NCBI GenBank assembly: GCA_002404755.1
Contig: DHKI01000014.1
Location: 4,056 to 68,055 of the forward strand
Direction of reading: 5' to 3'
DNA from: Clostridiales bacterium UBA4698
GTDB taxonomy: Bacteria; Bacillota; Clostridia; TANB77; UBA1234
Length of the DNA stretch: 64,000 nt
Shown here: positions 14,189 to 53,816 of the stretch, one piece after another
Numbering within the stretch: the first letter of the stretch is position 1
Layout of the letters: the number at the start of each line of letters is the position of its first letter
Notes under the pieces: model-generated
What the model was told of the DNA's origin: nothing
What the model saw: the letters and a program-made list of their open reading frames with translations, nothing else
The model's database searches: none
Program-made: the position numbers and the translations under genes

Positions 14189-14935
14189 ATGGCAGATTAT
14201 TTAAAGGGTTCAATAAATCCTAAAAACCTTGTAGATACTGCTAAATATAATATTGAATTTAGAAAATCACATCCAGATTATTTTTATCCAGAAGGTTTAA
14301 TATCTTTTTGTGGTTCTCAAGGTTCAGGGAAAACTTTATCGGCTGTGCAATACATCATAAAGATTTTAAAAGATTATCCTAAAGCTGTTTTGGTTACTAA
14401 TGTTCATATAGATGGTATTAAAAATCAAGTCGTGGAGTATTCTTCACTTCAAGAACTTATAAATCTATTTGATTTGGTGCATAACGGCGAATATGGGGTT
14501 ATTTATTTTATTGATGAAATACAAGTATTATTCAATGCTTTGCTTAGACGTAATTTAGATGTTAGGACATTAGAAACTATTTCACAACAACGTAAGCAAA
14601 GGAAACATATAATTGGAACCGCTCAAATATTCGCAAAAATCGATAAGATTTTTAGGGAACAAATGCAAGGTGTTGTACTTTGTAACAAGTTTTTAAATTG
14701 CATTCAATATAATCAACGTATAGATGGTCAAAAGGTTGTTGAAGTAGATGGAAAGCTTAAGTACGATGTCGAACGTAATTATATATGGTTCCATAGTCCA
14801 AAACTTTATAATTTGTATGACACTTCAAAAATTATTTCTGCTTATAAAAAAGAGTATGAAAATAATGCTTTTGATATGTCTGCACTTGAAAAAGTTTTGA
14901 AAGAAATTAACGAAGGGGGTACATGTAATGCCTGA
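14189..14935 (+). CDS. Zot/pI-like morphogenesis P-loop ATPase
   Basis: Walker A CGSQGSGKTLS and Walker B VIYFIDEIQ. 248 aa with no TM segment of its own. Confidence 0.65.
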   Translation: MADYLKGSINPKNLVDTAKYNIEFRKSHPDYFYPEGLISFCGSQGSGKTLSAVQYIIKILKDYPKAVLVTNVHIDGIKNQVVEYSSLQELINLFDLVHNGEYGVIYFIDEIQVLFNALLRRNLDVRTLETISQQRKQRKHIIGTAQIFAKIDKIFREQMQGVVLCNKFLNCIQYNQRIDGQKVVEVDGKLKYDVERNYIWFHSPKLYNLYDTSKIISAYKKEYENNAFDMSALEKVLKEINEGGTCNA

Positions 14936-15077
14936 TATAGATTATCAAGAATTATTGGTTTTGATTGCTAGTATAATTAAAATTGCTTTACCTTTTGGTG
15001 TTATTACTGGTTTTGTAGAATGGGCAGTAACATTTTTCTTAAAATGTGTATTCCCTAGAAGATTTAAGGGGGATTGA
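14928..15077 (+). CDS. 49-aa membrane peptide overlapping the ATPase stop codon
   Basis: Sequence MPDIDYQELLVLIASIIKIALPFGVITGFVEWAVTFFLKCVFPRRFKGD. Its ATG lies within the last codons of the ATPase gene. Confidence 0.4.
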   Translation: MPDIDYQELLVLIASIIKIALPFGVITGFVEWAVTFFLKCVFPRRFKGD

Positions 15078-15079
15078 TT

Positions 15080-15262
15080 ATGCCAGTAGACAATTATGAA
15101 ACTTTAGTTAGTGAAGTTTCTAGTACAAATGAATTATTAGAAGAACAGAATATAAAAATTGACAATTTTAACTCTACAGTTTCAATTTTATTATTTGCTG
15201 TTCTTTTTTTTAAAGCTGGAGAGTTTATTCATAGGATTTTTGTTCGTTTTTATAAGTATTAG
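15080..15262 (+). CDS. 60-aa protein with a C-terminal TM segment (minor-coat-like size)
   Basis: MPVDNYETL...VSILLFAVLFFKAGEFI. It is tightly packed with its neighbours. Confidence 0.4.
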   Translation: MPVDNYETLVSEVSSTNELLEEQNIKIDNFNSTVSILLFAVLFFKAGEFIHRIFVRFYKY

Positions 15263-15271
15263 GAGGTTTTT

Positions 15272-15442
15272 ATGAAAAGAGATTGTTTTGCATATGTTAG
15301 CGATAAAAAATGTAATGCTTTATATGAAACTAATTGTTGTATCTGCAATTTTTATAAACCTAAAAAGAAATATTTAGAAGAGTTATCAAAATTGACAGAA
15401 TATTCCCCATTAAAAGGTGGTAATAGGCATTTAGGACGTTAG
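15272..15442 (+). CDS. 56-aa Cys-rich protein
   Basis: Sequence MKRDCFAYVSDKKCNALYETNCCICNFYKPKKKYLEEL... with an AGGAGG RBS. Confidence 0.4.
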   Translation: MKRDCFAYVSDKKCNALYETNCCICNFYKPKKKYLEELSKLTEYSPLKGGNRHLGR

Positions 15443-15457
15443 GTGGTGTTTATACTA

Positions 15458-17443
15458 ATGAAGAAATTTATATATACATTTTTAATTGCATTAAGCTTGC
15501 TAGGAATAACAAGTTGTTGTTTTGCCTCTGCTAATTGGGGTGTTTATGATTTAGAGAAGTTTTTAAGTTGTTATGGCTATGATTTTGATTTTGCTAATGC
15601 AAATTATACGAATAATTATAAATATTCAAATTTGCAGTCTAATATAAGTAGGTCTGACTATCCGTTAATAGTTTTTGATATGAGAAATGGTGGAAGTTTT
15701 TATCCTTCTAACAACTCTGTACCTTGTGATTTTGTTTTTTTTAATGCTTATAATGCTGTTTCATCATCTAGTAAACTTATTTTAACTAAAAATGCTTCTG
15801 GAGATTATTTTTATTATTTTGGTTATGGTTCATATGGTTATGCTGTAGATATCGATAATAATACTGTTTATTGTTCTTTTAATGCCTATTATACAAATGA
15901 TTATTGGAACGAAAGAAATTTAAAGGTTTCCCATGAAGAATTTGTTTCAACTGCCTTTCAAGAATATTTAATAAAAAGATATGGTTTAATTTACACAGAG
16001 ACAACAATTTATGCTAATGATGGTAAGACTCCTCTTATTGTTCCACAAGGTGGGGAAATAAAACAATCTTCTTTTAATGATGTTGCTTATAAAGGCAAAA
16101 TCACTTATGGTGCCACAACAGAAACTACTAATATAACTTATACTAGTGGTTTTACTGCTGATACTAATTATGATTTGTTTTTAGAAGTTTATAAACTTGG
16201 TGATAGTTACGATAACGGTATAACTGCTTATCCTGTGGATACTATCGATTTAGGTACTGTATCTACTTCTGTTACTAGTAAAAAAATAGATATAAAGAAG
16301 GCTTCAAGTAGTTCTTTTTATGTTTATAAACTGTGTGTAGGTAAAAATAATTTTGACACTTCTGGTACTAATGATGTTTATTTATCTACTAAATGGTTAT
16401 TATTCAATGATAATATTGTAAGAAGATATAAAGATTTCTCTCGATGTCATACTATGCGATTTTTAAGTTTGATTGCTTATGATTATGGTTATAACTATGA
16501 CGATGAAGATACTTCAGATGTTCCTGGTTCTGATACTGAATATTTTTTCAATTATCCTTATGTTATTTCTTCACCTGGTGGACGTTGGAGTGGAGATAAC
16601 TTATCATTTAAAATTGGTTATAAATTTGAAGAATTTGGTGTCGATATTGATACTTGCTATTTGTATTTTGAAAAGTATGGTATAAATGGCTCTGGTGAGC
16701 TCTTTTTAATAGATACTTTAACGATACGTCCTTTTGATACTAAATATTATAATTTTGATGAATTTTATTATGAGTTTGATGTTTTAGATTTTGATAATTC
16801 TTCTGCTCCGTTTTTTAAATGTGATGAAGGTGTATCTTATTGTTATATTCCATATTTAAGAAGTAATTATGGTAGTGGATTATATCCAGAATATTCTTAT
16901 AAATGTATTTATTTTTATACTAATGAATTTGCTTTTAATATGGCAACTTTTGACGATATTATTACAAAGGACGATAAAGATGGCTTTGTTAGTAAATTAT
17001 TAAATGTATTCAAAGGGTGTTTTATTCCTTCTTCTGAATTTATGACATCATACTGGAATGAATTGTATTTGTTTTTTAAAGTTAAACTAGGGTTTTTATG
17101 GGATTTGGTAATGTTTTTTCCAGAATTAATAAATAATATTATTTCTGTTTTAAAAGCAGAATTATTACTAACTTCATTTACAACTCCAGAGCTTAGTATC
17201 CCTACTTTTATGGGTGATGGTAGTGAGGTTGTTATACTAGAAAGTATTACTTTTTCACCATATGAATACTGGGGGCAAAGTAAAGTTTTTGCTGATTTAT
17301 ATACGTTATATTTAAATTTAATGGACTTTTTAGTCTTTTTTGCATTGTTTAATTATGGACTTGTAGTTGTTGCTAAAATTTTAGGTTTTTGGGTTCCTGA
17401 AGCAAGTAGTGATAGTTCTAAAAAATCTACAAAAAAGGAGTGA
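15458..17443 (+). CDS. Large secreted, C-terminally anchored protein (pIII-like adsorption protein candidate)
   Basis: N-terminal signal peptide (LLGITSCCFA). The protein is rich in Tyr, Asn and Phe. It has hydrophobic helices near the C-terminus and a short basic end. Confidence 0.5.
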   Translation: MKKFIYTFLIALSLLGITSCCFASANWGVYDLEKFLSCYGYDFDFANANYTNNYKYSNLQSNISRSDYPLIVFDMRNGGSFYPSNNSVPCDFVFFNAYNAVSSSSKLILTKNASGDYFYYFGYGSYGYAVDIDNNTVYCSFNAYYTNDYWNERNLKVSHEEFVSTAFQEYLIKRYGLIYTETTIYANDGKTPLIVPQGGEIKQSSFNDVAYKGKITYGATTETTNITYTSGFTADTNYDLFLEVYKLGDSYDNGITAYPVDTIDLGTVSTSVTSKKIDIKKASSSSFYVYKLCVGKNNFDTSGTNDVYLSTKWLLFNDNIVRRYKDFSRCHTMRFLSLIAYDYGYNYDDEDTSDVPGSDTEYFFNYPYVISSPGGRWSGDNLSFKIGYKFEEFGVDIDTCYLYFEKYGINGSGELFLIDTLTIRPFDTKYYNFDEFYYEFDVLDFDNSSAPFFKCDEGVSYCYIPYLRSNYGSGLYPEYSYKCIYFYTNEFAFNMATFDDIITKDDKDGFVSKLLNVFKGCFIPSSEFMTSYWNELYLFFKVKLGFLWDLVMFFPELINNIISVLKAELLLTSFTTPELSIPTFMGDGSEVVILESITFSPYEYWGQSKVFADLYTLYLNLMDFLVFFALFNYGLVVVAKILGFWVPEASSDSSKKSTKKE

Positions 17444-45250: not shown

Positions 45251-45449
45251 TTTTTGTTTTTGAGAACTGAATGTTAATAAAAATAGTGGTATATATCTTA
45301 TCTTTTTCGCCTATCTAAAGTATTAGCCTATCTTGTGCTTTCTGGCAAAATGTGGTATACTATAATAAGTATACAAAATGTAAAAACATAACATATTCGT
45401 AATATTGCTTTTGACTCATAATTGAACAATAATATTAGGGGTGATTTTT

Positions 45450-46187
45450 ATGAAAAGTGAAAAAAGAAGATTTTTAGTAGTAATTTTGATAATATTTTTG
45501 ATAATTTTACTGTTATTTATGATTTACGCTCTACGAAATGCTTTAATTTTATCTAATATTGATAAGATGGTTACCAATTTAGAAAATAACAATCAAAATA
45601 TTTATGCAAAAATTGTAACAAACGATATTTCTGGCAATATTACTTCTTCGGAACATTTTTTGAAAGATAATGTTTATAAAAGGGTGACAAAACTAGACAA
45701 TCCGGCAACCGATAACATTGATTTAATTGTTACTACTTTCACATATCCGTCATCACAAAAAGTATTTACAGAAATAGGAGATAATCGAACTTTAAGCATA
45801 AATGATAGCATAAAAACTCCAGTTAGAGGCTACCATGTTGATAATGCTACATATGCTATTATAATGAATTTTGGACATAATGAAAATTTCTTTATACAAG
45901 CATTAGCTAGCATTTCATCTAATATAAAAACAGTAGAAATCGATGGCAAAAAGTATTATTTGATAGAAAACTTTATTTCTTCGGATTATATGTATGATAC
46001 TGATGCAAAAGAAATAGTTGCGTATGTTGAAAAAGATACTGGTCTACCATTAAAAATTGTTGAAACTTTAGAAAAAGATGGAGCAACTTTTGAAAAAATC
46101 TCTTCATTCGAATATAAATTTGATTATGTTACTGATAGCGATATGATAGAACCAGATGAAGCAATGTTTTCTATTCAAGAGGATTGA
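45450..46187 (+). CDS. N-terminally anchored protein, function unknown
   Basis: It has a single TM helix (FLVVILIIFLIILLLFMIYAL). ATG start at 45450. Confidence 0.45.
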   Translation: MKSEKRRFLVVILIIFLIILLLFMIYALRNALILSNIDKMVTNLENNNQNIYAKIVTNDISGNITSSEHFLKDNVYKRVTKLDNPATDNIDLIVTTFTYPSSQKVFTEIGDNRTLSINDSIKTPVRGYHVDNATYAIIMNFGHNENFFIQALASISSNIKTVEIDGKKYYLIENFISSDYMYDTDAKEIVAYVEKDTGLPLKIVETLEKDGATFEKISSFEYKFDYVTDSDMIEPDEAMFSIQED

Positions 46188-48054: not shown

Positions 48055-49183
48055 TTAAAACCTCCTTATCATCTGTACATTAGTGAGAAGTTGCTCACTT
48101 TTAATAAAAATGTTACTGAAATTATAAATAGCATTGACATTGCCGCTAAAATTCCGAACCATTACTTTGGTTGAGTCACATATTCCGCTCAAACACTTTG
48201 ATATTCGCTTGTCCACTAAAGGTTCTGCAATGCAATTAGTTATATTAAATATAACCATTATCATAAGCAATTTTATAAGTGGTCCAAGTGATATTGAAAT
48301 TATTACTAAAACTCCTACAATTCCTAGTGCGTTTTTTGTAATCGATGTTGCTCCTATAACACTATCTGCCGCATCGCCTATTAGCTTTCCAACTACTGGT
48401 ATGCTCACATTTACAACCGATTTTGTGGTTTTTGCAACAATTCCATCAACATTTGCTGCAAGTGTGCCTTCTAATGATAGAATTCCAACGAATATTATTA
48501 GCGATATTTCTAAGACAAACAGTGCATTCTTTTTTAAAAATGCTCCGAACTTTGATACATCAACTTCATTTGAAATATTGCTAACTAGTGTTAAAACGGT
48601 GGATATTAAAACAAGTGGTATTAAGAGCGCAGAAACTAAGTTGCTTATAATTGCTGTCATTCCAAGCAGTACCGGTTGAAGCGAGCTTACTATTACTATA
48701 TTGCCGTGATATTGTTAAATAGATTATTATTATAGGAATTATTATACCCATAAAAGCATTTAGACTCTTTATTGTATCCTTTGTAAGACTTACCACTTGC
48801 ATAAACGATGTTATTATTAAAATTGCTATCATAAGATAACAAACATAAAAAGCTACTTCTGAAACTCCGTTTTCACTCGAGGCTTGTATACTTTTTATAA
48901 TGCCACAGAATATGCAAATAGCTAGTATTTTAAACATGAGCTTTAATGAACTTTTTATCTCCTTTATAAACAAATTAAGTATCCTATCAATAAGCGTTTT
49001 GCTATCTATTTTTACATTTCCAGTTGTGAGTGACTCGATAAAATCTTCCTCTTCAATTTCTGGAAAAAGCTCTGTTCCATATTCTTTCATTTGATCAATA
49101 TAACTTTTTAAATCACTTTCTGCTTGTACACTACTAAAGATACAGATTAAAAATATTAGTATACTAACAATAAATTTTTTCAT
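48055..49183 (-). pseudogene. spoIIIAE: Stage III sporulation protein AE, frameshifted
   Basis: It is split into 48581..49183 and 48055..48660. Removing one nt near 48705-48707 joins ...IIIYLTIS to GNIVIVSSLQPVLLGMTAIISNLV... Confidence 0.7.
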
Positions 49184-49809: not shown

Positions 49810-50337
49810 CTATATTAACAAAATAATAAGAATAAGTCCTGTTAAAACACCCATATTTCTATACATTTTATAGCTTCTGCTCTTTTCTTCAGTTGCATCT
49901 TTTAATTGTGACATAAGCATTTGCTGAACAAGTCTTATATTTTTTATTTGGTTTTCTAAGTCTGTTTGACCAAGTGATACAGAAAGCCCCTTTAATATTT
50001 CTATATCTTTATCTTTTAGCTCTAAAAAAATCTTTTCTTCATCTACTACATTTCTAAAAACATCACCTGCAGACATGTTTTTGTTTTCTCTTAAATGCTC
50101 CGCCGATATAAAAAATATTCTATAAATCTTCGTTTTTAAATTTTCTGATATGTACATAAATGTGTCAATCAAACTATCATATGTATATGAGATTTTTGCT
50201 TCAAATATTTCTAATGCGGATATAATATCTTCAAGTTCACTAACTCTAGTGCTAAACCTGTTAGATATAAAAAAGCCTATTGCCATCGAAGCTAGAAAAA
50301 CAATAGTAAGCAAAATAATTTTAACTACTAATAACAT
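49810..50337 (-). CDS. spoIIIAB: Stage III sporulation protein AB
   Basis: N-terminal TM helix and operon position. The start is set at MLLVVKIIL. Confidence 0.8.
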   Translation of the reverse strand: MLLVVKIILLTIVFLASMAIGFFISNRFSTRVSELEDIISALEIFEAKISYTYDSLIDTFMYISENLKTKIYRIFFISAEHLRENKNMSAGDVFRNVVDEEKIFLELKDKDIEILKGLSVSLGQTDLENQIKNIRLVQQMLMSQLKDATEEKSRSYKMYRNMGVLTGLILIILLI

Positions 50338-51242
50338 AGTTTTTATCCTCCAGTTTATATATTTTTTTAATCTCACCCGGTTTTTGCTTTTTAGTGAGAA
50401 TAATTATGTTTTTGAACATATTTCCTTCTAAGAAGTCTTTAGAAATATCTTCTATATCCTTTCCATGCATTGTGAGAAGCAATTTTGTCCCCATAAAGCT
50501 GGCTTCTTTTATTGCTTCTAAATCATCTTTTCCGCCAATTTCATCTGTGGCTATTATTTTAGGAGCCATGCTTCTTATCATCATTTTTATTCCGATAGAT
50601 TTTGGCAAATTACACATTACATCTGTTCGAACTCCAATCTCATTTTGAGGAGTTCCTTTGTACATTGCCGCAATTTCCATTCTTTCATCTACTAAAGATA
50701 TATTTTCACCCCTTATATTTTCAAAGCCATTGCTTAAATTTTTTATCATGTCTCTTAATATTGTTGTTTTACCTGCACCGTGGTGGAGATACTATAAGCG
50801 TATTTTCAAATGAGTTATTTTTCGTTATCTTTTCAAGTAGTGCTTTACTACAATTTTTAACTTCTCTTGCAACTCTTATATTTAAACTAGATATGTATTT
50901 TATGTTTTTTATTTTTCCATCTTCTATAATTCCCATTCCTGATATGCCTATTCGATGACCACCTCTAAGTGTTATATAACCTGAGTTTATCTCGTTTTGC
51001 ACGGCATATATAGAATTATTACAGAAACTTTCTAAAAGCCTTAGCATGTCCTCTGTATTTACTTTATGATTTAAAAAAAGTTCATTGCCTAAATACCTGA
51101 CTTCTATTGGTTGTCCATTTCTTATTCGTATTTCTTCTGCTGTATCCCATATATTTTCACTTGTTATATTTTTGATTTCATTTAAACTATCTGGAAAAAA
51201 AGAAAGAATTTCATCATATACCTTTTGAAACATGCTTTTCAC
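50321..51242 (-). pseudogene. spoIIIAA: Stage III sporulation protein AA (AAA ATPase), frameshifted in the Walker A
   Basis: It is split into 50769..51242 and 50321..50749. Removing one nt near 50779 restores TLIVSPPGAGKTTILRDMIKNLS. Confidence 0.7.
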
Positions 51243-51452
51243 CTCTAGTGTAATGTATATGCTGATTATTTGATTTTTAGAACTAAATATTATTTTTTAT
51301 TAAAGAAATTTTTCATGATATAAACTTAATATGCTAATGAATGTTATGGCAATTTTCAGTCTTTATGATACTTGACACACTTGAAAATTGGCTATACCTT
51401 TCATATCAAGTAACAAAAAACATGGTAATCAAATGATTACCATGCTTTTTAT

Positions 51453-52508
51453 TTAGTGCTTCTGATTTTCGTTTCTGAAAATATTCAGAAAATCTTTTGC
51501 TTCAATTTTGGGATACATTTCTGCAATAGATGCATAATTTGTTTTCATCCATTTCTCAAAGCTTTTCCTTACATCAATTCTCACAAGTGCCACATTCTTT
51601 TTCATCTGTCTTGCAATATCATCGTAAATCTTGTCGATAGATTTTGCAGAACTTGCCATGGAAATAGCTCTTTTAAAAGCTTCTCCATTAATCTTCAGTT
51701 CATCACAAAGATGGAAAAGACGCTCATCATAAGAACCTGTAGAAGGATTCAAAAACTTAGCAATGGCATCACCAAAAGTTTCTTCCAAAACCGTATTCAA
51801 AGTCACCTTACTTTCATCTTCGCTTGCAACCTTTTCTACCGTTTCGAAAACTTGTGTAATGTTTTCTTCATGAGATTCTACTTTCTCATCATTACATTCT
51901 TCCTGTTTCAAATCAGTTTCTTCGGAGATGCAAATCTTTTGAACATTTTCGTTCTCACTAGTTGCACCTTCAATTTTTTCTGATTCTTCAGAAAGATTTT
52001 CCACTGCCAAGCCTTCTTCATCCACATTATGATTTTCTGATTTTTCATCTACCATTTCCTTTTCACAAGATGTTTCTTCAATGTTAGTAGTTGTAATTTC
52101 CTCCATACCGGATTCTTCTAAATCCTGACTTGCTTCGATAACCGGGGATTCAATTACATTGTCATTCTTTGGTTCTTGGAATGCATCTTGAGAATTGTCA
52201 ATTCCATGTTCGTGCTCGCAAGAAGCAGAACTAACATCAACCTCTTCAACATTCTCAGGAAGTTTTTCGAACTTTTGATTTTCCTCAGACGTAGTTTCTA
52301 TGATAATTCTTGCATCAAGGAAAATTCTTCTAAGGAAAAATAGAAGTTTCGCCACCTCGTCCTTTTGACTCCATTCCCACAAGATTACAACCTTTGAATG
52401 CTCATTGTCCCAAACGAACTCAACATTAAGTTCGTTAATCACATGCATCAACTCAAAGAATTTTGTTTGATCTCGGTCGCCATAGAGAATTGTGATTTTG
52501 TTCTTCAT
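51453..52508 (-). CDS. Highly acidic three-part protein, function unknown (partner of the PemK-like-domain gene)
   Basis: A folded N-terminal domain is followed by a ~150-aa E/D/S-rich linker and a helical C-terminal domain. The start is set at MKNKITILYG, which has an AGAGGTGA RBS, 13 nt after the upstream stop. Confidence 0.55.
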   Translation of the reverse strand: MKNKITILYGDRDQTKFFELMHVINELNVEFVWDNEHSKVVILWEWSQKDEVAKLLFFLRRIFLDARIIIETTSEENQKFEKLPENVEEVDVSSASCEHEHGIDNSQDAFQEPKNDNVIESPVIEASQDLEESGMEEITTTNIEETSCEKEMVDEKSENHNVDEEGLAVENLSEESEKIEGATSENENVQKICISEETDLKQEECNDEKVESHEENITQVFETVEKVASEDESKVTLNTVLEETFGDAIAKFLNPSTGSYDERLFHLCDELKINGEAFKRAISMASSAKSIDKIYDDIARQMKKNVALVRIDVRKSFEKWMKTNYASIAEMYPKIEAKDFLNIFRNENQKH

Positions 52509-52520
52509 CTCAATCACCTC

Positions 52521-53645
52521 TTAGTGATGGTATGCAATCAAGTTAATAAGTCTGAGAAAAGCCTCGAAACAAGGATACAATTCTTTATATTTCTTCTTCA
52601 AAAGAACCGCAACCTTGCCCTGAACAGCGTCAGGTTTCATAAGCTTGCCTCTAGAGATATCAACAAAGAGCTGCTTACTATCAATATTAGTTGAGAATTT
52701 TGTCCTTCTAATAGCCTCAAAGAGATATGTAGAAGCTTCGTCAGCATCAGGATAAAAGCCGAGCAAATTCATGAGTTTTTTTACCTTCTCCTCATAAGTA
52801 AGCTCAGAATTACCTATCTCAACAGCTTCTTTCTCTTTGCCACAAAGAAGGTTCAACTGCTTTGAACCAAGCTTCAAGTCTTCAAGAGTGAAGTTTACAC
52901 TCTCCTCCGAATTTCCTCTTAGGTAGCACCTCTCAATGACTGCGTAATAATCTTCAGAAATGTCTCCAAGATACTGAATAAAACGCTTTTCGGAAACAGA
53001 CTGACGCTCTTTAAAAAGTACATGGGTTTTCTGCTGTGCATAAAACTTAGGGTTTTTGTTTTTAAGCACCTTAGGATCAAGGAAAGAAAGTTCCAAAACT
53101 TCTTTTCCATCCCAATACTTAGTACTACATGGAATAACATTCCAAAGTCCCTTTGATGTTTCTTCGCAAAGGATAGCGGGGTGCGGATAACCAAATTCAC
53201 CGCCAACCGGTACTCCAAAATCAACCATCCAAAGAGACATTCTTTTTGGCTTTGGAAAATCCTTATAATAAAGTCTGCTCTCCGTCATCTCATGTCTAGA
53301 AGAGACAAACCTTCTATCAGAATTTTTCAATGATTTTGTATCCGTTTTGGGATAAATTTCCGGTGTTGCCTTTCTAACTGCTGTTGGAACACCAATAAGT
53401 TTATCCGGACCAACAGTCGAAACCTTAATGTCACTTGGTTTAGTGTTTGAAACAGATTTTATCTGTCTCATTCCTATCAGGTTCAAAATACTGTTCGAAG
53501 GGTTACCATCACTAAATGTAACTCTCCCACTCTCAATGTCAACTTTTATATCTCCCAAAGTTCCGTCGCCTGTTTCAGGCATTTTAATCATGTTCCGTGC
53601 CAATTCATACGGATCAAAGTGTTCGTTTACCGATACTGTAAGCAT
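52521..53645 (-). CDS. 374-aa protein with an internal PemK/MazF-like segment
   Basis: LWMVDFGVPVGGEFGYPHPAILCEE..GLWNVIPCSTKY aligns by eye with the IWxVxf.P..GxE....RPxlv ... vvPxTs core of Kid/MazF toxins. Confidence 0.5.
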   Translation of the reverse strand: MLTVSVNEHFDPYELARNMIKMPETGDGTLGDIKVDIESGRVTFSDGNPSNSILNLIGMRQIKSVSNTKPSDIKVSTVGPDKLIGVPTAVRKATPEIYPKTDTKSLKNSDRRFVSSRHEMTESRLYYKDFPKPKRMSLWMVDFGVPVGGEFGYPHPAILCEETSKGLWNVIPCSTKYWDGKEVLELSFLDPKVLKNKNPKFYAQQKTHVLFKERQSVSEKRFIQYLGDISEDYYAVIERCYLRGNSEESVNFTLEDLKLGSKQLNLLCGKEKEAVEIGNSELTYEEKVKKLMNLLGFYPDADEASTYLFEAIRRTKFSTNIDSKQLFVDISRGKLMKPDAVQGKVAVLLKKKYKELYPCFEAFLRLINLIAYHH

Positions 53646-53787
53646 AAATGCAATTACCTCCTATTTTTTATTATTGTCGCTAATATACCTACTTTGGACT
53701 ATTCTAAGAAGAGCCCGAGTAATCCGAAACCATAAAGTTTCTCCTTTCTAATTAGAAATAGATTTACAAGACTATTCATGCTCTTAT

Positions 53788-53816
53788 ATTATAGCATTAA
53801 AGCGTTTTGAGGTCAA
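53788..53816 (-). promoter_or_regulatory. Consensus sigma-A promoter of the 52521-53645 cassette
   Basis: On the minus strand: TTGACC (53811-16), a 17-nt spacer, then TATAAT (53788-93). Confidence 0.6.

Follow-up and report, generated by a model that had tools for sequence, protein, structure and literature searches.

Can a MazF-type domain that is flanked by two further domains and followed by an acidic protein be part of a toxin-antitoxin system, and where would such a partner come from? The question is raised by a two-gene cassette in a stretch of 64,000 nucleotides (nt) of contig DHKI01000014.1 from Clostridiales bacterium UBA4698, in the following called the window. Both genes are located on the minus strand; the first, geneA, encodes a putative toxin of 374 amino acids (aa) and the second, geneB, its putative neutraliser of 351 aa. 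The initial annotation had proposed an undescribed toxin-antitoxin or defence module, an interpretation that was partly supported by the present analysis, while the underlying observation was confirmed. On balance, we regard the pair as a probable, modestly supported case of a non-canonical type II toxin-antitoxin-like conflict module that belongs to an unnamed family of gut Clostridia.

A MazF barrel with histidine at the arginine position

Word-indexed searches yielded a narrow family of 14 geneA and 11 geneB homologues, all of metagenomic origin. Within about 185,000 GTDB species this narrow family was present in two, both metagenome-assembled genomes of uncultured Clostridia. An exhaustive profile search opened a wider family of 104 clusters at 50 % identity, of which about 60 had the plan of N-domain, MazF domain and C-domain, and many cluster representatives consisted of N-domain and MazF domain only (190-260 aa, without C-domain). 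A follow-up search raised the number to at least 241 unnamed proteins at E<=1e-10. With NdoA-type MazF, the MazF domain of the wider family shares about 40 % identity, and most members kept the canonical arginine.

The segment LWMVDFGVPVGGEFGYPHPAILCEE...GLWNVIPCSTKY, which had been read as a Kid/PemK/MazF core, was present in geneA. The window protein scored 19.8 bits against PF02452 (gathering threshold 23.1) and covered profile positions 1-103 of 109. The same profile was matched independently and over its full length by all 14 members of the narrow family (best E=4.5e-7), and in the wider relatives the domain exceeded the gathering threshold, with E-values down to 1.6e-27. A profile search of the PDB with geneA returned MazF in 12 of 14 matches. 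Structure prediction with AlphaFold2 (AF2) from a 14-sequence alignment gave a mean predicted local distance difference test score (pLDDT) of 46 and an unusable MazF domain; from an alignment of 110 sequences the mean pLDDT of geneA was 72.9, with 77-91 in the MazF domain. With the latter model, all 58 Foldseek matches in the PDB at E<=1e-3 were MazF (probability 1.0), at target template modelling (TM) scores of 0.6-0.79. Modelling of the central segment as a MazF barrel had been set beforehand as the check on the fold, and AF2 and Foldseek agreed on this outcome: the central domain of geneA is a genuine MazF/PemK barrel.

The replacement of the usual RP by HP, noticed in the initial annotation, was located in the active site. 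In the alignment to E. coli MazF obtained by the PDB profile search, H155 of geneA corresponded to R29 and S174 to T52. His155 was invariant in 15 of 15 narrow-family sequences, which consequently lack the arginine known as R29 in E. coli and R25 in B. subtilis. Conserved in the geneA family were E150, equivalent to E24, and S174, a serine or threonine across the family and equivalent to T52. Histidine occupied the arginine position in 31 of 97 cluster representatives, always together with the Glu24 and Thr/Ser52 equivalents. Because of this recurrence with the remaining active-site residues kept, the His-type domains are seen as a constrained subclass rather than as products of decay. GeneA may act as a ribonuclease (RNase) with histidine in place of arginine, and it may be toxic to the cell. 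Many of the His-type representatives (among P0026-P0126) were short proteins of 110-280 aa without the geneA-type C-domain.

The acidic partner and its origin

The 351-aa partner with an acidic linker of about 150 residues was found as annotated (Table 1). Its net charge is -41; an alternative GTG start, giving 354 aa, falls within the ribosome-binding site. GeneB had no AbrB, ribbon-helix-helix (RHH) or other match in Pfam. The acidic linker varied in length, and its alleles could not be aligned.

Co-conservation of the two genes, the second check set beforehand, was observed throughout. Both genes were present at every narrow-family locus, and each of the 11 geneB homologues adjoined a geneA homologue. 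Additional loci of the wider family were obtained by a metagenome scan with the closer alignment set A11, the alignment A8 being a very diverse one of the toxin type. In 15 of 16 wider-family loci, whose surroundings are unrelated to those in the window, the geneA-like gene was followed by an acidic open reading frame (ORF) with a net charge of -7 to -48; relative to the end of the geneA-like gene, its start lay at -44 to +15 nt. At the sole exception the contig ends right after the geneA-like gene.

Sequence profiles related these partners to the toxin itself. The toxin-type profile A8 matched partners across the MazF and C regions (E=2e-9 to 2e-7), and in hhalign comparisons the toxin aligned with the middle, MazF-like domain of the partners at a probability of 94 % (E=2e-7). 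The catalytic arginine position was not conserved in this middle domain. The hidden Markov model (HMM) of the geneB C-domain matched the C-termini of 11 wider-family partners (E=8e-7 to 5e-5), the geneB N-domain resembled their N-domains weakly but collinearly, and geneB as a whole scored as partner-type and not as toxin-type (E=7e-9 vs E=2). One protein, P0037, is a fusion of a geneA-type protein with a geneB-type C-domain at its tail (E=1.9e-5 with the geneB C-domain HMM). In the window and in all close homologues of geneB the middle domain is missing, and the acidic linker takes the position at which the wider-family partners carry the degenerate MazF-like domain. The reduced plan without middle domain also occurred in at least one wider-family partner (L027). 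Since most partners carry a degenerate MazF-like domain together with a geneB-type C-domain, we read the partner as a copy of the toxin gene that has diverged and, in the lineage of the window, has lost the MazF-like domain. The annotated acidic character of a possibly mimicking partner was thus correct, but geneB appears to be more than a merely acidic mimic.

For the terminal domains the relationship of both proteins was fainter. When toxin and partner of the wider set were compared by hhalign, the N-domains reached P=0.007 and the C-domains P=0.014, with P>=0.056 in all non-cognate control pairs; in the narrow set the comparison of the N-domains was not significant. The initial annotation had noticed a faint similarity of the two C-termini. 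A direct comparison did not substantiate it (hhalign P=0.02, a probability of 2 %; P=0.002 with a richer profile); the wider family lends it indirect support only, but makes it plausible.

No source provided a name for the wider-family proteins. Searches of NCBIfam, PADLOC and PHROGs gave nothing beyond the MazF part, neither NCBIfam nor PADLOC holds a family for the pair, and the literature searched contained no description of the pair or of its architecture, in line with the suggestion of an undescribed module. A match to PHROG 1412 covered the MazF region, and the label 'mazE-like' of this group was set aside as unreliable. New is thus the MazF domain between an alpha/beta N-domain and a putative Spo0A-type domain, combined with a toxin-derived partner, while the MazF core family is known. 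The gut phage records PV036436.1, PV036415.1 and PV036434.1 contained longer proteins annotated as 'MazF-like growth inhibitor' or PemK-like, with a match to the wider-family protein that covers query residues 126-327 and extends beyond MazF; BFVD entries of 180-266 aa were likewise longer PemK-like or MazF-like proteins. These longer proteins may be two-domain relatives of the family.

Transcription unit and allelic variation

Upstream of geneA, the annotated consensus promoter was verified. It matched 11 of 12 consensus positions in addition to the TG of an extended -10 region. Neither the two hexamers nor the TG nor the length of the spacer differed among the six loci aligned, one of which, L002, has a geneA of just 38 % identity; judging from these alignments, the promoter is conserved far more than expected by chance. 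A terminator hairpin with T-run is located directly 3' of geneB, and the ABC (ATP-binding cassette) operon upstream has a terminator of its own. Because of its own promoter, its own terminator and this separate upstream terminator, the cassette has to be seen as an independent transcription unit. The gap between the geneA stop and the geneB ATG, which follows GAGGTG, measures 12 nt and not 13 nt as first stated. With one promoter, one terminator and this short gap, the two adjacent genes are arranged for co-transcription, as type II toxin-antitoxin genes are. The 5' leader contains a short upstream ORF (uORF) whose start codon, strong Shine-Dalgarno sequence (SD) and length (8-9 codons) were kept in five of the six loci, and its peptide sequence differed by cassette allele. 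Two copies of an 8-nt direct repeat (minus strand, GAATAGTC), spaced by 73 nt, enclose the uORF. Leader and cassette matched no family or element in Rfam.

Table 1 Features of the cassette in the window
Feature	Position	Strand	Basis
Promoter, sigma-A type, TTGACC, 17 nt, TG-extended TATAAT	53788..53816	minus	consensus scan
Short uORF in the 5' leader, 9 codons (MVSDYSGSS*)	53704..53733	minus	SD AAGGAG at 53741-53746
geneA, 374 aa, three-domain MazF-family protein, putative toxin	52521..53645	minus	ORF
geneA N-domain, residues 1-67, predicted beta-alpha-beta-beta-alpha-beta	53445..53645	minus	AF2, pLDDT about 73
geneA disordered linker, about residues 68-130	53256..53444	minus	AF2, pLDDT 24-43
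geneA MazF/PemK domain, residues 131-245, His155 at the catalytic Arg position	52911..53255	minus	PF02452, Foldseek
geneA C-terminal helical domain, residues 246-374, putative Spo0A_C-like helix-turn-helix	52521..52910	minus	AF2, PF08769
geneB, 351 aa, acidic partner, putative antitoxin/neutraliser	51453..52508	minus	ORF, ATG after GAGGTG
geneB N-domain, residues 1-75	52284..52508	minus	17 invariant residues
geneB acidic linker, residues 76-230 (155 aa)	51819..52283	minus	49 D/E vs 10 K/R, net -39
geneB C-domain, residues 231-351	51456..51818	minus	conserved, HMM
Intrinsic terminator, 10-bp stem CATGGTAATC/GATTACCATG, then TTTTTT	51410..51444	minus	terminator scan and sequence

The cassette is situated between a MacB/FtsX ABC operon and spoIIIAA, upstream of and on the same strand as the latter, in six genomes. 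The location given in the initial annotation was therefore right, but not the notion of an insertion in the sense of a recent event: the same site is occupied in five other related genomes. A recent mobile insertion at the spoIIIA site was rejected on this ground and for want of a flanking integrase or repeats. Outside this site, the pair was found at a different locus in L030, and P0009, 56 % identical to geneA, is encoded at a locus unrelated to sporulation. Neither a second copy of the cassette nor Spo0A was present within the window. At 36.6 %, the GC content of the cassette exceeds that of the window as a whole (30.9 %) and of the adjoining genes (29-33 %), which fits a distinct evolutionary history.

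Comparison with the related genomes revealed a locus that is conserved but allelically hypervariable. In L003, L004 and L005 the flanking proteins were 95-99 % identical to those of the window, and identities were 61-89 % for geneA and 44-84 % for geneB. DNA identity to L003 dropped just after the promoter (about 53750) and recovered to 97-99 % just past the terminator (about 51350), boundaries that match the ends of the transcription unit. The synonymous divergence (dS) of geneA against L003 was saturated at 3.2, while the flanks had values of 0.06-0.41. Accelerated protein evolution as sole cause of the divergence was rejected on account of these saturated synonymous sites. The ratio of nonsynonymous to synonymous divergence (dN/dS) was 0.08-0.11 over the whole of geneA and 0.03-0.07 in its folded domains (N-domain 0.03-0.04, MazF domain 0.07, C-domain 0.06), with about 0.4 in the linker. 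GeneB evolved faster than geneA, with ratios of 0.09-0.18 in the terminal domains (N-domain 0.16-0.18, C-domain 0.09-0.16) and 0.73-0.79, close to neutrality, in the acidic linker. Anciently diverged alleles in a background of recent common origin indicate replacement of alleles or balancing selection, not a mere relaxation of constraint.

The context of the homologues, a further point for checking, gave a divided picture. Some wider-family loci adjoin a relaxase and a C5-methylase, a phage-type integrase, transposases, or a cluster of methylase, HATPase and HNH genes. Full-length homologues were not found on phages, plasmids or viral contigs, and about half of the loci lie among housekeeping genes.

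The terminal domains of GeneA

The initial annotation had assigned about 145 residues to an N-terminal domain. AF2 supported a folded domain only in the first part, about 67 residues; beyond it comes a disordered linker (residues 70-128 in the model, some 60 aa) that varied in length and sequence. The N-terminal region has a net charge of about +2, i.e., this linker is not acidic. Across the wider family the N-domain follows the consensus MLQLQ..DICRISKLL.KYNIKA.I....ITLDG.IS.ELL...VQNF; it had no match in Pfam.

The C-terminal domain is conserved and helical, and the label 'unrecognised' can probably be replaced by a helix-turn-helix of the Spo0A_C type. AF2 predicted an all-helical fold for residues 254-372 at a pLDDT of 80-92. 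Among 34 C-domains of the wider family, 11 matched PF08769 (Spo0A_C), with E=3.2e-6 at best, and no other Pfam family recurred; in full-length relatives it appeared in 5 of 10 at a constant position, at scores of 13-19 bits, below the gathering threshold of 25 bits. The B. subtilis Spo0A sequence used for direct comparison was validated against 1LQ1 (E=5e-72). In hhalign, the C-domains of geneA (P=0.008) and geneB (P=0.021) aligned with that of Spo0A in register but weakly; the geneA-type C-domains matched the IGVPAHIKGYLYLREAI segment as well as the part with the recognition helix, and the geneB C-domain had the same register. A PDB profile search with the C-domain recovered the helix-turn-helix of BlaI/MecI only, at a weak E=0.04, and not Spo0A, and a fold search in BFVD resolved neither the N- nor the C-domain. 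A Spo0A_C-type helix-turn-helix is thus probable for the geneA C-domain, not proven, and the C-domains of geneA and geneB may bind DNA.

Function of the pair

If the pair is a toxin-antitoxin-like module, geneA would be the effector, a His-type MazF endoribonuclease with an alpha/beta domain at the N-terminus and a probable helix-turn-helix at the C-terminus. GeneB, originating from a duplicated toxin gene, would be the neutraliser and would dock on geneA via the conserved terminal domains. Its acidic linker could then fill the basic groove in which the MazF dimer binds RNA, a role played in MazEF by the acidic tail at the C-terminus of MazE. For wider-family partners, neutralisation may alternatively proceed through an inactive heterodimer of their pseudo-MazF domain and the MazF domain of the toxin. 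The helix-turn-helix domains would autoregulate the invariant strong promoter, and loss or titration of geneB would release the RNase. The biological role may be abortive-infection phage defence or addiction. Such a conflict role is preferred over housekeeping because ancient alleles occur in near-identical backgrounds and because the wider-family loci are scattered and partly associated with mobile elements.

Several observations weigh against this interpretation. The catalytic arginine is exchanged for histidine in geneA, and RNase activity is for this reason not assured. The homology of the N- and C-domains of geneA and geneB is only suggestive. PF08769 did not match the window protein at all, i.e., the Spo0A_C assignment is below threshold for geneA itself. 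PADLOC-DB v2 contained no defence model that matched geneA, geneB or three wider-family pairs, and on viral contigs, phage genomes and plasmids single-domain MazF was the only homologue, full-length ones being absent. Unlike in MazEF, the toxin gene comes first, the proteins are as large as 374 and 351 aa, and an antitoxin fold of AbrB or RHH type is missing. About half of the loci in the wider family have housekeeping genes (rpoB, murE/mraY, mnmA/mgtE, dapF) as neighbours, and the stable synteny beside spoIIIA in six genomes would also suit a domesticated cellular role.

The last points lead to the most serious alternative, in which both proteins form a stable, non-toxic heteromer that acts as sequence-specific RNase or as RNA- or DNA-binding regulator, with geneB as structural or specificity subunit. 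The strong purifying selection on all folded domains would be natural for such a complex, and so would the fixed chromosomal position in six genomes, the vicinity of rpoB, murE/mraY and mnmA-type genes at about half of the wider-family loci, histidine at the catalytic position, putative helix-turn-helix domains on both proteins and the complete lack of defence-model matches. Ancient divergent alleles in near-identical backgrounds are, however, unusual for a housekeeping function, as is a patchy distribution as rare as that of the narrow family among the GTDB species; moreover, the location of the pair differs and includes the neighbourhood of mobile-element genes, and the MazF domain of the wider family has about 40 % identity to the known toxin NdoA/MazF and keeps Arg, Glu and Thr. 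We therefore consider a domesticated complex possible but rather unlikely.

In six genomes the cassette immediately precedes spoIIIAA in the same orientation, which invites the assumption of a sporulation-linked regulator. Its Spo0A_C-like domains would bind Spo0A-type boxes, and the pair would modulate sporulation, e.g., the expression of spoIIIA, comparable to the solo MazF of Myxococcus xanthus that was recruited into development. The recurrent Spo0A_C matches of the C-domains and the apparent restriction of the family to Clostridia-type genomes of spore formers are in agreement with it. Yet a sigma-A-type promoter and a terminator belong to the cassette itself, and P0009 as well as all sampled wider-family members are located at non-sporulation loci. 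A developmental regulator would not be expected to vary so strongly between alleles, the similarity to Spo0A_C is weak, and inspection of the promoter region, by eye only, revealed no clear 0A box. A regulator of this kind seems improbable. Equally improbable is a toxin whose N-domain and linker silence it in cis, with geneB as trigger sensor or activator instead of neutraliser, in analogy to CapRel, a fused toxin-antitoxin protein: the extra conserved domains and the disordered linker beside the MazF domain of geneA, the many representatives of 190-260 aa composed of N-domain and MazF without C-domain, and the faster evolution of geneB, as is often seen in sensor components, would suit it, but the geneA linker is not acidic (about +2 in the N-terminal region) whereas the partner is consistently polyacidic, and the tight translational coupling and strict co-occurrence suit a stoichiometric neutraliser.

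Returning to the toxin-antitoxin-like module, a more far-reaching scenario can be drawn, which we offer as a speculation with little prospect of holding in all its parts. Hundreds of sequences from gut Clostridia would form a MazF conflict family that arose from two diverged gene copies, an Arg- or His-type RNase tethered to DNA via a Spo0A_C-like domain and a pseudo-toxin copy, or its polyacidic remnant, that keeps it in check. Toxin release may couple to promoters with Spo0A boxes and thereby to sporulation decisions, and phages or competitors would exert the balancing selection that keeps the ancient alleles at a fixed site.

MazF is among the best-studied bacterial toxins, yet the architecture found in the cassette is undescribed in the libraries and the literature searched. 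If functional, the pair would represent a new route for the origin of antitoxins, from toxin duplication via inactivation to the reduction to an acidic mimic. It would also offer to biochemistry a conserved variant of the MazF active site with histidine for arginine, and the ancient allele classes at one site in uncultured Clostridia of the human gut would be relevant to phage-bacterium conflict in the microbiome.

Genes next to the cassette

The spoIIIA operon adjoining the cassette presented two split genes. In the window, spoIIIAA (50321-51242, minus strand) is divided into ORFs of 157 and 142 aa by a 1-nt insertion in the Walker A motif, compared with the intact gene of L002. At the junction near 50760-50790, a skip of one base at CCA CCA C GGT GCA GGT AAA ACA restores SPPGAGKTT. 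With the junction aligned, the same +1 shift is needed in the window, in L003 and in the diverged L001, and the same split into two ORFs was observed in L004 and L005. Both halves had dN/dS values of 0.01-0.07. Programmed +1 frameshifting may account for the two ORFs, or the gene may be split in a conserved manner; the 0-frame codon at the junction is CGG, which we take to be a rare codon. Likewise, spoIIIAE (48055-49183, minus strand) is split into overlapping ORFs of 200 and 201 aa in different frames, also in L001 and L003, and this split thus recurs in several independent assemblies.

Downstream of spoIIIAH, L003 encodes a toxin-antitoxin pair of RelA_SpoT (toxSAS) and Panacea at 14483-15846. 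The counterpart in the window (45441-46187) is a different ORF of 248 aa on the opposite strand, which marks a second variable spot beside the spoIIIA operon.

Comparison with known systems

The closest known systems are MazEF, PemIK and Kis-Kid, with which the cassette has the toxin fold and the homologous PF02452 domain in common; by sequence, the wider family comes closest to the NdoA/EndoA of Firmicutes. Shared with MazEF are the Glu24 and Thr/Ser52 equivalents, the tightly coupled bicistronic organization and, in the partner, an acidic disordered segment that resembles the acidic C-terminal tail of MazE. In other respects the layout is not that of a canonical type II system, as had already been stated in the initial annotation. 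A single-domain MazF toxin has about 110 aa, whereas geneA has two additional conserved domains, and the catalytic arginine of MazEF is a histidine in the geneA lineage. In canonical mazEF a small antitoxin with AbrB or RHH fold is encoded upstream; in the cassette the gene of the three-domain toxin comes first, and geneB has neither fold and appears to be derived from a toxin copy. Finally, a putative DNA-binding domain is present on the toxin as well as on the partner.

Spo0A_C (PF08769; 1LQ1, 1FC3) was matched repeatedly by C-domains of geneA-type proteins, and the C-domains of the cassette align with it weakly but in register. The scores of the window proteins are below threshold and their DNA binding is putative; in addition, Spo0A has a receiver domain, which geneA and geneB lack.

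Toxin-derived antitoxins are known from HipBST, in which HipS is of such origin. As in HipBST, the neutraliser of the cassette apparently came from a copy or part of the toxin lineage, and partners in the wider family still carry a degenerate MazF-like domain. The toxin of HipBST is a kinase, that of the cassette a putative RNase, and in the lineage of the window the toxin-like domain of the partner is itself lost.

A MazF homologue recruited into development is known from Myxococcus xanthus. This solo toxin, MazF-mx, is regulated by the transcription factor MrpC (mentioned in reviewer comments, PMC2701414). Like MazF-mx, geneA is a MazF homologue with a partner other than MazE and, by its position next to spoIIIA, with a possible link to development or sporulation. 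In contrast to MazF-mx, the adjacency to spoIIIA is lineage-specific, and the partner is a co-transcribed paralogue instead of an unlinked transcription factor.

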